A DNA stretch of 48,244 nucleotides from a virus. A model generated the notes under the pieces. It saw nothing but the letters and a program-made list of their open reading frames with translations, had not been told where the DNA came from and ran no database searches. The DNA lies in UHGV virus genome UHGV-0308199; one strand, written 5' to 3'. Shown one piece after another: positions 22,296-25,045 of the stretch. Each line of letters begins with the position of its first letter. The first letter of the stretch is position 1. Made by a program: the position numbers and the translations under genes.

Positions 22296-22323
22296 TGACC
22301 ATCTACATCACTGAGCTAATAAC

Positions 22324-22355
22324 AGGCCTGCTGGTAATCGCAGGCCTTTTTATTT
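22324..22355 (+). terminator. intrinsic terminator after helicase gene
   Basis: AGGCCTGC-tggtaatc-GCAGGCCT + TTTTTATTT. Confidence 0.6.
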
Positions 22356-22370
22356 GGGGGAGAGTAAATC

Positions 22371-22697
22371 GTGGCTGACTGGCAAATACCAATCATCATT
22401 CTTGCCGGAGCCTCGCTGGTTGCTGGCTTTATCCTGCTGAAAAAGCATAAAGACCGTGATCAAAAAGTCGAAGTTCTCTATGGGTATCCAGCGAACAGCA
22501 CAACATGGCTGACCATTTACCACTACCGAAAATCAGGCCGCTGGGTATTCGAATGGGATGATCTGTTCGCTGAAAAGCGACCAAAGTCATGGGGAGACAT
22601 CAGCGAATGCATGATGTTTGAAGAAAGAAAATCCGGCGCAACCCGAGAAGAGTTTAACGAAGCGTGGAGGCGATTAAGTGAGAGAGGGTATCAATGA
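22371..22697 (+). CDS. hypothetical membrane-anchored protein
   Basis: 108 aa; hydrophobic N-terminus; GTG start. Confidence 0.45.
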   Translation: MADWQIPIIILAGASLVAGFILLKKHKDRDQKVEVLYGYPANSTTWLTIYHYRKSGRWVFEWDDLFAEKRPKSWGDISECMMFEERKSGATREEFNEAWRRLSERGYQ

Positions 22698-22930
22698 GCA
22701 AAATTAAATCTGGTTATCCAGGGAATGGGGAATACCCGAAGCCATATTTACCTGTAACTGTGACCACTCAATCTAGGCATCCACATCATTTCAAGCAAAG
22801 TGGTACAGCTTATTGGAGTGGCAATCGGTGGATAGGTATTGATGGGTTCAAAATTGGGTATGCAAAGGTAATTAAATGGGAATTTAACATCGCAAACTGG
22901 AGTTCATCCCATGAGGAAACTAACGTTTGA
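22694..22930 (+). CDS. hypothetical protein
   Basis: 78 aa ORF. Confidence 0.4.
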   Translation: MSKIKSGYPGNGEYPKPYLPVTVTTQSRHPHHFKQSGTAYWSGNRWIGIDGFKIGYAKVIKWEFNIANWSSSHEETNV

Positions 22931-23498
22931 ACTAAGAAGCCACATCCATCAGCAGAACGCTATTCACGCAGTACAGCAAATCATTCCAGACCCAACCAAA
23001 CCAATCAATCAAATAACTCAGCAGAGACTTAAAGAAGTCCTTCTCTACGATGAGTTAACAGGGAAATTCACATGGAAAGTAAAGAAATGCCAGAGAATGA
23101 ATGCTGGGGATATCGCAGGGCATAAGAGTAGCGAAGGCTACTGGGTAATAAAAGTCGATGGAAAACTTTATAAGGCACACAGGCTGGCGTGGCTCTATAT
23201 GAATGGCAGTCTACCAAAAAGTGATATCGACCACATAAATCTCGTTAGGGATGACAATCGTATAGCAAATCTTAGATTGGCAACTCGATCTCAAAACATC
23301 CAAAACGTAAACAAAAAGGCAAATAACAAATCAGGATATAAAGGCGTTTCATGGGATAAGAAATCAAGAAAATGGAGGGCGCAAATCGTAATCAACAAGA
23401 GGAAAGTTAATCTTGGGTTTTACGATGACCCAAAGGAAGCTCATAAAGTATATGCAAATAAAGCGGATGAATGTTTCGGCGAATTTGCGAGGTATTAA
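22911..23498 (+). CDS. HNH homing endonuclease (HNH + AP2-like domain) fused to a NinB N-terminal segment
   Basis: First 32 aa MRKLTFELRSHIHQQNAIHAVQQIIPDPTKPI match the NinB N-terminus I recall; remainder HRLAWLYMNGSLPKSDIDHINLVRDDNRIANLRL...GYKGVSWDKKSRKWRAQI is HNH/AP2. Confidence 0.8.
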   Translation: MRKLTFELRSHIHQQNAIHAVQQIIPDPTKPINQITQQRLKEVLLYDELTGKFTWKVKKCQRMNAGDIAGHKSSEGYWVIKVDGKLYKAHRLAWLYMNGSLPKSDIDHINLVRDDNRIANLRLATRSQNIQNVNKKANNKSGYKGVSWDKKSRKWRAQIVINKRKVNLGFYDDPKEAHKVYANKADECFGEFARY

Positions 23499-23499
23499 A

Positions 23500-23928
23500 A
23501 TGAAATGTGTCAAATATCACCTTACTAATGAATCTATAAGATATAACGCCATTCAGTATCTTAGGACATGCGATTTAGACATCATTGTCGAGTTTAAGCA
23601 GCGCAACCGCAGCTTAGACCAAAACCGAAAGCTTTGGGCTTGCCTTGGTGACGTCTCTCGTCAGGTTGAATGGCATGGTCGCTGGCTGGATGCAGAAAGC
23701 TGGAAGTGTGTGTTTACCGCAGCATTAAAGCAGCAGGACGTTGTTCCTAACCTTGCCGGGAATGGCTTTGTGGTAATAGGCCAGTCAACCAGCAGGATGC
23801 GTGTAAGCGAATTTGCGGAGCTATTAGAGCTTATACAGGCATTCGGTACAGAGCGTGGCGTTAAGTGGTCAGACGAAGCGCGACTGGCTCTGGAGTGGAA
23901 AGCGAGATGGGGAGACAGGGCTGCATGA
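23500..23928 (+). CDS. ninB: NinB (Orf-family recombination mediator)
   Basis: QRNRSLDQNRKLWACLGDVSRQVEWHGRWLDAESWKC...[11 protein letters not shown] matches recalled lambda NinB; ATG 1 nt after HNH stop. Confidence 0.8.
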   Translation: MKCVKYHLTNESIRYNAIQYLRTCDLDIIVEFKQRNRSLDQNRKLWACLGDVSRQVEWHGRWLDAESWKCVFTAALKQQDVVPNLAGNGFVVIGQSTSRMRVSEFAELLELIQAFGTERGVKWSDEARLALEWKARWGDRAA

Positions 23929-24797
23929 TAAATGTCGTTAGTTTCTCCGGTGGCAGGACGTCAGCATATTTGCTCTGGCTAATGGAGCAAAAGCGTCGGG
24001 CAGGTAAAGACGTGCATTACGTTTTCATGGATACAGGTTGTGAACATCCAATGACATATCGGTTTGTCAGGGAAGTTGTGAAGTTCTGGGATATACCGCT
24101 CACCGTATTGCAGGTTGATATCAACCCGGAGCTTGGACAGCCAAATGGTTATACGGTATGGGAACCAAAGGATATTCAGACGCGAATGCCTGTTCTGAAG
24201 CCATTTATCGATATGGTAAAGAAATATGGCACTCCATACGTCGGCGGCGCGTTCTGCACTGACAGATTAAAACTCGTTCCCTTCACCAAATACTGTGATG
24301 ACCATTTCGGGCGAGGGAATTACACCACGTGGATTGGCATCAGAGCTGATGAACCGAAGCGGCTAAAGCCAAAGCCTGGAATCAGATATCTTGCTGAACT
24401 GTCAGACTTTGAGAAGGAAGATATCCTCGCATGGTGGAAGCAACAACCATTCGATTTGCAAATACCGGAACATCTCGGTAACTGCATATTCTGCATTAAA
24501 AAATCAACGCAAAAAATCGGACTTGCCTGCAAAGATGAGGAGGGATTGCAGCGTGTTTTTAATGAGGTCATCACGGGATCCCATGTGCGTGACGGACATC
24601 GGGAAACGCCAAAGGAGATTATGTACCGAGGAAGAATGTCGCTGGACGGTATCGCGAAAATGTATTCAGAAAATGATTATCAAGCCCTGTATCAGGACAT
24701 GGTACGAGCTAAAAGATTCGATACCGGCTCTTGTTCTGAGTCATGCGAAATATTTGGAGGGCAGCTTGATTTCGACTTCGGGAGGGAAGCTGCATGA
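23925..24797 (+). CDS. NinC-like PAPS-reductase-fold protein
   Basis: [15 protein letters not shown]-loop-like motif; start overlaps ninB stop (ATGA). Confidence 0.65.
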
Positions 24798-25045
24798 TGC
24801 GATGTTATCGGTGCGGTGAATGCAAAGAAGATAACCGCTTCCGACCAAATCAACCTTACTGGAATCGATGGTGTCTCCGGTGTGAAAGAACACCAACAGG
24901 GGTGTTACCACTACCGCAGGAAAAGGAGGACGTGTGGCGAGACAGCGACGAAGTTTCACCGACATCATCTGTGAAAACTGCAAATACCTTCCAACGAAAC
25001 GCTCCAGAAATAAACGCAAGCCAATCCCAAAAGAATCTGACGTAA
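24794..25045 (+). CDS. NinD-like zinc-ribbon protein (3' extent uncertain)
   Basis: [11 protein letters not shown]...CLRCE Cys pairs; ORF overlaps NinE frame. Confidence 0.45.

Follow-up and report, generated by a model that had tools for sequence, protein, structure and literature searches.

How can a nuclease gene sit inside a phage recombination gene while that gene remains readable? The question is raised by UHGV-0308199, a lambda-like E. coli prophage that carries an HNH-AP2 nuclease gene inside its ninB recombination gene; the window, i.e. the whole stretch of DNA analysed, is 48,244 nucleotides long, and all positions refer to it. NinB, also named Orf, is a RecA-loading recombination mediator. 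A first-pass annotation had proposed that the HNH ORF opens with 32 codons of a duplicated ninB 5' end and continues in frame as an HNH-AP2 endonuclease, that this endonuclease inserted into ninB together with a donor-derived ninB 5' arm and borrows the translation signals of ninB, that the ATG one nucleotide past its stop opens a complete and functional NinB with a different but homologous N-terminus, and that there is too little non-coding sequence for a group I intron. Aligning ninB loci with and without the insert had been suggested as a check, and a native origin of the 32 codons in the HNH family as one observation that would speak against the proposal. The observation proved correct, and each element of the proposal open to testing was supported, with a qualification on the duplication. 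The features of the locus are collected in Table 1.

Table 1. Features of the interrupted ninB locus, in window coordinates.
Feature	Position	Strand	Remarks
Shine-Dalgarno GGAG of resident ninB	22899..22902	+	8 nt 5' of ATG 22911; now placed to serve the fusion
Fused ORF NinB(1-32)::HNH-AP2 endonuclease	22911..23498	+	195 aa, ATG start
Resident ninB 5' remnant, codons 1-32	22911..23006	+	in frame with the endonuclease; putative left homology arm
Inserted cassette, 595 bp	23007..23601	+	start-less HNH-AP2 gene plus foreign replacement for ninB codons 1-34
HNH_3 catalytic domain	23169..23297	+	residues 87-129; Pfam 60.9 bits, cut-off 24.8
AP2-type DNA-binding domain	23331..23453	+	residues 141-181; Pfam 29.4 bits, cut-off 33.3
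Shine-Dalgarno GAGG for restarted ninB	23489..23492	+	within the last endonuclease codons; 7 nt 5' of ATG
Stop/restart junction TAA-A-ATG	23496..23502	+	one-base spacer
Cassette-borne replacement ninB 5' segment, codons 1-34, MKCVKYHL...VEFKQ	23500..23601	+	found only in cassette-linked NinB
Complete chimeric NinB/Orf gene	23500..23928	+	142 aa; Pfam NinB 157 bits, residues 5-124
Resident ninB body, lambda type, codons 39-146	23602..23928	+	putative right homology arm
Right junction zone CGCAACCGCAGC (RNRS)	23602..23613	+	identity to lambda-type ninB begins at 23602; identity to type-2-body L013 ends at 23613

The start of the fused ORF belongs to the resident gene. Over its first 96 nt the ORF shows 100% identity with the insert-free ninB allele L004, and its residues 1-41 match residues 1-41 of lambda NinB (PDB 1PC6; E=3.7e-12), so that the 32-codon match is real and far above chance. 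Free-standing HNH relatives (160-168 aa) begin where residue ~33-35 of the fusion sits, and hence the 32 N-terminal residues are foreign to that family. In the structural model the first 33 residues of the fusion have a pLDDT of 46-53, which makes them a predicted appendage outside the nuclease fold. The same GGAG Shine-Dalgarno sequence also precedes the insert-free ninB of L004, and no in-frame ATG, GTG or TTG was found between codon 1 and Met63; as it has no start of its own, the nuclease would be read from the Shine-Dalgarno sequence and ATG of ninB, as annotated. The ORF, which closes with TAA at 23496-23498, stays open in 19 of the 20 loci from E. coli and IMG/VR, and the exact 195-aa fusion protein is present on 125 contigs. 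One copy, L011, carries a nonsense mutation (TGC>TGA) at codon 60; we counted it against the homing reading weighed below.

Past the remnant, the ORF matches PHROG 99 'HNH endonuclease' (E=2e-74), and D107, H108, N116, N120 and N129 are invariant in an alignment of 16 relatives. The AP2 domain scores slightly below its Pfam cut-off and is confirmed by the predicted fold, since the model matches plant AP2/ERF domains in Foldseek with an rmsd of 1.2-1.6 Å (prob 1.0). The best fold match of the nuclease model is I-HmuI (PDB 1U3E, prob 1.0; 23% sequence identity over 96 columns). Like I-HmuI, the nuclease has an N-terminal module, here the conserved residues 35-62 with invariant L44, Y46, G51 and F53, and a His-Me finger catalytic domain, followed in our case by AP2; I-HmuI differs in being intron-encoded and in its C-terminal DNA-binding region. 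HNH-AP2 endonucleases are a family of homing endonuclease genes of protists, cyanobacteria and phages (cited in PMC10448857).

Base 23499 is an A, and the ATG at 23500-23502 opens a 142-aa ORF ending at 23928 (MKCVKYHLTNESIRYNAIQY...). The encoded chimeric NinB matches 1PC6 in sequence (E=1.7e-73), and its AF2 model (pLDDT 83.7; 75-84 in the N-terminal segment) matches the same structure across 141 columns (E=4e-15). The body is 97.5-98.5% identical to the ninB of lambda, HK97 and O276. The 102-nt replacement segment is homologous to NinB residues 1-38 and four residues shorter, a gap also found in the natural short-loop NinBs P0238 and P0239; its alignment to the resident ninB 5' end gives nothing meaningful at the DNA level. 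With a pN/pS of 0.26 for the replacement segment, measured against the Cronobacter lineage described below, and a dN/dS of 0.08 for the nuclease body, both parts of the cassette are, on these ratios, under purifying selection. The intact ORF, the fit of the model to the NinB fold and this selection agree with the proposal that the ninB left downstream would be functional. The proposed duplication needs revision: two ninB 5' ends are indeed present, yet they did not arise by duplication in situ, the upstream one being the resident remnant and the downstream one a foreign homologue. Searches of the phage collection (tblastn and distant blastn) and of the 120 best NinB clusters turned up no source of the MKCVKYHL-type N-terminus that is free of the cassette, which we counted against the homing reading. 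L013 was considered as its native donor and rejected: the type-2 ninB body of L013, with only ~26% identity to lambda NinB past the RNRS motif, carries an ordinary lambda-type N-terminus elsewhere (at least 29 phage loci and 77 E. coli genomes), and L013 is, judging from these sequences, another recipient allele.

The limits of the cassette were set by comparison with insert-free ninB alleles, phage lambda included (L004, HK022 L001 and lambda L177 for this lineage). The suggested alignment bears out an insertion of the endonuclease into ninB: where the cassette stands, the empty allele has 18 nt (GTAGTAACCATTCAGGAA, codons 33-38). Both junctions are identical across the 20 occupied loci. The 15-mer GTAACCATTCAGGAA is present in 26 of 26 cassette-free ninB loci with a lambda-type N-terminus and in no cassette locus, nor does it occur in the window. 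A transposon-type insertion was rejected, as there are neither terminal inverted repeats nor a target-site duplication; the left junction has just a 4-nt AATC repeat. Within the cassette, a single weak promoter-like site (23251-23278) turned up; chance alone would yield more such sites in this region.

The cassette was found in 8 of 5426 complete E. coli genomes, about 1325 of which have ninB, with all copies located in ninB and at least 99.2% identical, and in 12 IMG/VR loci with 0-6 differences. Across these 20 cassette-bearing E. coli and IMG/VR loci, nucleotide diversity (pi) is 0.0058 for the cassette, compared with 0.058 in the 5' arm and 0.125 in the 3' arm; it is lower in the cassette than in the ninB arms by a factor of ~10-20. 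The 5' arm falls into 14 haplotypes (20 loci) and the 3' arm, i.e. the ninB body, into 18 (19 loci), while a single identical cassette haplotype is found with five different 5' arms and seven different 3' arms. Polymorphism begins at most 23 nt to the left and 0-12 nt to the right of the cassette, whose gene contexts number 11 upstream and 7 downstream. Two ninB body types that have only their 5' ~125 nt in common both carry the cassette at this site. It has thus spread recently into many pre-existing ninB alleles. Catalytic residues, a separate DNA-binding module, a presence/absence polymorphism at a fixed site with intact empty alleles, and an element more uniform than the target alleles flanking it are all features of an HNH homing endonuclease found here. 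Neither scan of the GTDB species representatives returned relatives of the cassette, and a search for the exact junction pattern in IMG/VR gave no match. With 8 carriers among the ~1325 complete E. coli genomes that have ninB, the cassette is rare, which would fit an inefficient, sporadically transmitted or declining element equally well as an active one.

A second cassette lineage of the same design, with 66% amino acid and 69% nucleotide identity, was found in Cronobacter prophages, with one locus located through the partner NinB P0286. Its fusion frame is open in three sequences (L012, the partial L025 and L176), and its 5' arm resembles the local empty allele (78/81 nt in L012, 73/81 nt in the complete locus L176). 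The empty site of this lineage is L159, which was all that the metagenome scan recovered, no lineage-2 cassette being found there; the core GTAACCATTCAGGAA is common to the E. coli and Cronobacter empty sites. At the stop/restart junction TGA is directly followed by ATG, with zero spacer, and the restart Shine-Dalgarno sequence is kept as GCGAGGT. The cassette design is therefore conserved in two genera. The junctions differ between lineages, at codon 32 vs 27 on the left and at ~codon 38 vs ~codon 48 on the right, so that a single conserved insertion event is not proven. The donor origin proposed for the ninB 5' arm is well borne out: the replacement segment occurs only in cassette-linked NinB, is near-invariant next to varying arms and has diverged together with the nuclease in Cronobacter.

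We consider it probable that the insert is a homing cassette that captures the translation start of ninB and repairs the gene by replacing its 5' end and restarting translation, with cleavage and homing inferred from the population-genetic patterns above. Ribosomes would start at the Shine-Dalgarno sequence and ATG of ninB (22899/22911), translate the 32 resident codons and then the nuclease, and so produce a NinB-tagged enzyme. They would stop at the TAA at 23496 and restart one base further on, at ATG 23500, by translational coupling and/or through the GAGG within the final nuclease codons. The restart product would be a full-length chimeric NinB with a foreign N-terminus and the resident body; as the cassette carries a substitute for the first part of ninB, the host gene remains whole. 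The nuclease may nick or cut cassette-free ninB at the conserved codons 33-38 (core GTAACCATTCAGGAA), a site guessed from the stretch that is replaced. Repair would then copy from the cassette-bearing allele by way of two homology arms, the 96-bp 5' remnant on one side and the ninB body on the other, and cassette-bearing alleles, which have no target site, would be immune.

Other readings of the insert have to be weighed against this one. The nuclease shares its frame with the ninB codons before it, as some intron ORFs and inteins do, yet a self-splicing group I/II intron or an intein restoring one uninterrupted NinB is almost inconceivable: Rfam gave no family at E<=0.5 and no intron family at E<=1 in 22300-24300, and the insert ends contribute 0 and 1 non-coding bases, too few for a group I intron as the first-pass annotation had noted. 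Pfam found HNH_3 and AP2 alone in the fused ORF and no Hint/intein domain, the ORF closes with a stop codon, the downstream ninB is in another frame, and a complete homologous N-terminus is provided downstream; we rejected both the intron and the intein. It is also very unlikely that the working enzyme starts internally or non-canonically, with the 32-codon remnant as a dead leader. RefSeq (PGAP) does place nuclease starts at ATA 23013 or ATC 23004, the remnant is predicted to be disordered, and L011 could restart at Met63 past its TGA. However, Met63 is the first canonical start after codon 1, a start there would remove the conserved N-terminal module, and, since no stop separates ATG 22911 from the nuclease, each ribosome starting at the strong ninB Shine-Dalgarno sequence and ATG makes the fusion.

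More weight has to be given to passive spread, though we still regard it as unlikely. One or two illegitimate recombinations could have brought an HNH gene, a foreign ninB and a lambda-type ninB remnant together, followed by ordinary homologous recombination to which the nuclease, irrelevant or inactive, contributes nothing. Lambdoid genomes are highly mosaic, as the 11 upstream and 7 downstream contexts illustrate, and lambdoid phages recombine freely, so that mosaic spread without the nuclease is possible, a point that we counted against homing. The rarity of the cassette, the nonsense codon in one copy and the unlike junctions of the two lineages are in line with such a history too. Against it stand the breakpoints, which fall 0-23 nt from either end of the cassette on many independent allele backgrounds, a left arm of just 96 bp, a nuclease that keeps a dN/dS of 0.08 and its catalytic residues across this divergence (66% amino acid identity), and a frame open through the remnant in all but one of the E. 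coli and IMG/VR loci as well as in the three Cronobacter sequences. Alternatively, the nuclease might serve the phage, through exclusion, cutting the ninB of rival lambdoid genomes or prophages, or by aiding recombination together with NinB, with its spread as a by-product. Marker exclusion driven by homing endonuclease genes is known in T-even phages (PMC2988022), and here a tR2-like terminator lies upstream and the nuclease is co-translated with a recombination mediator on the early (nin) transcript. The mechanism would nonetheless be the same as in homing, nothing in the sequence tells benefit to the phage from selfish drive, and rarity speaks against a strong advantage; we hold this reading to be quite improbable.

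In the literature on ninB and homing endonucleases, and on HNH genes and the lambdoid nin region, we found no description of the present arrangement. By analogy, the closest precedent is that of the endonuclease ORFs of fungal mitochondria carrying foreign gene ends (mORFs), as in atp6 of Allomyces macrogynus and atp6, atp9, cox2 and nad3 of Glomus (PMC3630166). In both systems, an endonuclease ORF in a protein gene comes with a foreign, diverged copy of one gene end (PMC3630166); the foreign end is used and the native end persists as a remnant (in our case, 23500-23601 and 22911-23006 respectively), and the mORF often keeps the reading frame of the host gene. The fungal elements differ in that they are organellar, replace the 3' end and encode LAGLIDADG or GIY-YIG enzymes, whereas the ninB cassette replaces the 5' end, encodes an HNH-AP2 enzyme and resides in enterobacterial prophages. 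Moreover, and unlike in the mORFs, the ninB nuclease would be translated from the host start as a fusion to the remnant, with translational restart recovering the host gene.

Phage systems share other traits. The Seg and Mob genes of T-even phages are, like the ninB nuclease, homing endonuclease genes without intron or intein ('intronless homing'), which spread by a break in the genome lacking them and co-conversion of the flanking cleavage-resistant sequence (PMC2988022, PMC2790892). They have their own starts and are intergenic, whereas the ninB nuclease is start-less, lies within coding sequence and brings a 102-nt replacement piece of its target gene; it is thus not a free-standing gene of this kind. 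In genes-in-pieces, such as nrdA with mobE in Aeh1 or genes 39 and 60 with mobA in T4, an endonuclease gene also lies within phage coding sequence and host function is kept without splicing (PMC2988022). There, the host protein is split and two polypeptides reassemble, while the ninB locus would yield a single full-length NinB because the cassette supplies a substitute N-terminus; also unlike genes-in-pieces, the old N-terminal fragment of NinB would become a nuclease tag. Finally, the 'hidden HNH' of ShiLan, in an actinophage methylase gene, is likewise found in coding sequence with presence/absence polymorphism and no intron or intein features; the host frame is read through as an extra loop with HNH in another frame (PMC11855218), in contrast to the stop codon and restart with a replacement segment in ninB.

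Other phages carry a mirror-image cassette at the 3' end of ninB, in which the foreign part is a ninB body and the NUMOD4-HNH gene that comes after it is fused to what remains of the 3' end. Tentatively, and with more doubt than confidence, one can extend this to a general third route, beside introns and inteins, by which homing endonucleases inhabit phage coding genes, with ninB as a hotspot; 5' and 3' cassettes could together replace the whole gene (as in L013) and drive allele turnover, and co-translation of nuclease and NinB, or the NinB tag, may couple the break to the repair that copies the cassette.

The cassette accounts for RefSeq mis-annotations, namely 'HNH endonuclease, pseudogene' and HNH genes with ATA or ATC starts. 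Since wild-type lambda has an intact empty site, homing, target specificity, the role of the NinB tag and translational restart are directly testable in the best-developed phage genetics. The locus indicates that a homing endonuclease can settle inside a coding gene without splicing machinery, using the ribosome-binding site and start codon of the host gene; the N-terminal codons that it displaces end up as a harmless tag, and in return it brings a cleavage-resistant stand-in for the lost piece. The persistence of this design in two enterobacterial genera argues for a workable strategy and not an accident, one that would also offer a way for alleles in lambdoid nin regions to be replaced segment by segment.

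The window matches NZ_CP124374 at 100% and corresponds to a lambda-like prophage carried by E. coli AVS0578. The cassette lies in its nin region, with a gene for a DnaB-like helicase and a tR2-like terminator (22324-22347) upstream. This terminator-like element is a strong, intrinsic-terminator-like hairpin with a T-run (22324-22356; AGGCCTGC...GCAGGCCT TTTTATTT); it lies where lambda has tR2, with the helicase gene on one side and the nin genes on the other. A 78-aa ORF (22694-22930), missing from the RefSeq annotation of this genome, shares 20 nt with the start of ninB and matches PHROG 29435 over the full length (E=1e-57). Two reading frames follow, separated by a single A (23499). Residues 1-41 of lambda NinB (PDB 1PC6) match residues 1-41 of the first (E=3.7e-12), which continues into HNH_3 and AP2 domains, and the second is NinB. 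This bears out the first-pass annotation, which described 32 NinB codons in frame with an HNH-AP2 nuclease and a complete NinB opening 1 nt past its stop. RefSeq (PGAP) labels the ninB remnant (22911-23027) 'HNH endonuclease, pseudogene, missing C-terminus' and starts the HNH CDS (end 23498) at a non-canonical ATA (23013) or ATC (23004), or at Met63 in a nonsense-mutant copy; the in-frame NinB::HNH-AP2 fusion goes unrecognised.

Features of the ninB locus (window coordinates) and of further HNH genes (positions within the named loci)
Feature	Position	Description
First ORF	22911-23498	195 aa; stop TAA 23496-23498
HNH_3	First ORF, residues 87-129	Pfam
AP2	First ORF, residues 141-181	Pfam
Second ORF	23500-23928	142 aa; ATG 23500
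NinB	Second ORF	Pfam
Replacement ninB segment	23500-23601	Last 102 nt of insert; encodes MKCVKYHL...VEFKQ
Further nin-region HNH genes	L003/L011 2916-3443; L004 3447-; L009 3984-4493; L005 3782-4348	

Insert-free ninB (441 bp, 146 aa) was available from three sources: HK022, lambda and L004, an E. coli prophage whose genes upstream of ninB are those of the window. Across 22911-23006 (codons 1-32) L004 and the window are 100% identical; they then diverge, and identity returns at 23602 (CGCAACCGC...); therefore 595 bp (23007-23601) replace 18 nt, GTAGTAACCATTCAGGAA (codons 33-38, VVTIQE). The comparison of loci with and without the insert that the first-pass annotation had proposed thus yields empty sites and exact junctions, and the endonuclease is inserted in ninB, as it had claimed. 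Neither terminal repeats nor a target duplication were found at the cassette, and the Pfam search gave no intein domain. No convincing Rfam match, intron or otherwise, was found across 22300-24300, in agreement with the earlier dismissal of a group I intron. Its anatomy and empty sites are established, and the cassette is a genuine, clearly delimited element.

Free-standing relatives of the nuclease (160-168 aa) start M-x(0-3)-(I/L)T..RLKE(L/V)L.Y, equivalent to fusion residue ~33-35. The insert therefore holds a complete HNH-AP2 gene, a recognised HEG architecture (PMC10448857), lacking only its initiation codon, and the 32-codon N-terminus is not native to the HNH family. An AlphaFold model agrees with this, showing low confidence over residues 1-33 (pLDDT 46-53) and a confident body from ~35; the homing endonuclease I-HmuI is the best solved match of the nuclease body, and AP2 domains match the C-terminal domain. 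There is no in-frame ATG, GTG or TTG between the ninB ATG and Met63, and a start at Met63 would delete the conserved N-terminal module. Judging from the sequence, full-length enzyme should be obtainable solely by initiation at ninB's GGAG-N8-ATG, in line with the proposal that the nuclease borrows ninB translation signals.

The peptide encoded by the replacement segment is homologous to NinB residues 1-38 but diverged, and it lacks four residues, a deletion shared with natural short-loop NinBs. This N-terminus was found only in NinB clusters linked to the cassette, Salmonella alleles with another body among them, as expected of the donor-derived 5' end suggested previously. A GAGG lies 7 nt before the ATG, within the last codons of the nuclease gene; its position and the 1-nt spacer imply translational restart or coupling. 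The chimeric NinB is modelled as a NinB fold, in line with the functional downstream gene proposed previously. In locus L013 the cassette precedes a type-2 ninB body just ~26% identical to lambda's. We rejected L013 as the native donor gene of the replacement segment, since type-2 bodies are common and normally carry a lambda-type N-terminus. The cassette thus occupies one and the same position in two ninB types whose shared sequence is limited to the first ~125 nt, a finding that bounds the right junction to 23601-23613.

The insert is present in 8 of 5426 complete E. coli genomes (ninB in ~1325), always in ninB and at least 99.2% identical. Across 20 loci (these eight genomes and 12 IMG/VR loci), diversity was low in the cassette (pi 0.0058, 9 haplotypes) and higher in the 96-bp 5' arm (pi 0.058, 14 haplotypes) and the 3' arm (pi 0.125, 18 haplotypes of 19). 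On the left, polymorphism sets in no more than 23 nt from the junction; on the right, after 0-12 nt. The commonest cassette haplotype is joined to five different 5' arms and seven different 3' arms, and the 20 loci represent 11 upstream and seven downstream gene contexts. The 5' arm tracks the resident allele: that of the window equals the empty L004 allele, and most others are lambda-like (L005 differs from lambda at 1/96 nt). Of the 20 loci, 19 keep the fusion frame open; the exception (L011) has TGC>TGA at codon 60. The cassette has therefore spread recently into diverse ninB alleles. In E. coli TUM1880 (L005 496-1704), an ISVsa5 (IS4-family) transposase lies immediately upstream of the ninB remnant, disrupting the prophage next to the cassette.

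A second lineage occurs in Cronobacter: its NinB(1-27)::HNH-AP2 protein has 192 aa and, compared along its whole length, 66% identity to the window's fusion. In the complete locus L176 the TGA abuts the ATG without spacer, and the 142-aa NinB combines a Cronobacter-type body with an N-terminus (MKTIRYHLIDES...VEVKQRTRS) that has 71% identity to the replacement segment of the window. An empty Cronobacter allele matches the arms of L012 and L176 at 78/81 and 73/81 nt, up to codon 27. The two cassettes share 69% DNA identity, with dN/dS ~0.08 (dS saturated) for the nuclease body and pN/pS 0.26 for the replacement segment. The design therefore persisted or arose twice, with both coding parts under purifying selection. 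The junctions differ (left, codon 32 vs 27; right, ~codon 38 vs ~codon 48), so one ancestral event remains unproven.

A mirror-image cassette occupies the 3' end of ninB (L013 3590-4589; L093-L118, L121-L122; E. coli H135-H164), at least 80% of it being present in 77 complete E. coli genomes. There, a type-2 body (codons ~43-138) is followed, with an 8-nt overlap in 29/29 close copies, by a 200-aa NUMOD4-HNH gene whose final ~9 codons (KARWGDRVA*) are what is left of the 3' end of ordinary ninB (22/23 nt). L013 carries both cassettes, leaving ordinary ninB only as two remnants, each fused to a nuclease. The type-2 NinB of L120 (75% identity) comes with an N-terminus of its own and no HNH, and in one IMG/VR phage (L110 3457-4658) ~1.2 kb interrupts the NUMOD4-HNH gene between residues 46 and 47. 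More HNH genes (HNH-signature, NUMOD4) lie elsewhere in the nin regions of related prophages, e.g. right after ninB or between ninF and ninG, and the lambdoid nin region looks like a general landing zone for HNH nucleases. In the window, RefSeq flags ninD (24797-24904) as incomplete, its C-terminus missing, which suggests further rearrangement just downstream of ninC.

In both lineages the removed sequence includes a 15-mer, GTAACCATTCAGGAA, on which the empty alleles of E. coli, lambda and Cronobacter agree exactly despite differing surroundings. It occurs in 26/26 cassette-free lambda-N-terminus ninB loci fetched and, allowing up to 2 mismatches, in neither the cassette loci nor the window, a pattern that hints at a conserved target destroyed by insertion. 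We propose that early lytic transcription would yield a NinB-tagged fusion nuclease from the ninB start, and NinB through restart at 23500. The nuclease would break cassette-free ninB near codons 33-38, and repair would be templated by a cassette copy, the arms being provided by the 5' remnant and the body of ninB; occupied alleles would be immune owing to the replacement segment. The overall interpretation in the first-pass annotation is supported.

The closest conceptual precedent is found in fungal mitochondrial mobile endonuclease ORFs (Allomyces atp6, Glomus), which on insertion bring in a foreign gene C-terminus and leave the native one as a remnant (PMC3630166). Phage relatives include T-even Seg/Mob 'intronless homing' and the HEG-split genes nrdA (Aeh1) and 39/60 (T4) (PMC2988022, PMC2790892); the hidden HNH of ShiLan is likewise a non-splicing insertion in a phage gene (PMC11855218). 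Unlike these systems, the ninB cassette replaces the 5' end of its host gene, captures the host start codon by translational fusion and would regain one full-length host protein through restart. No description of this arrangement was found in the literature searched, and its chief interest is that it is directly testable in lambda.
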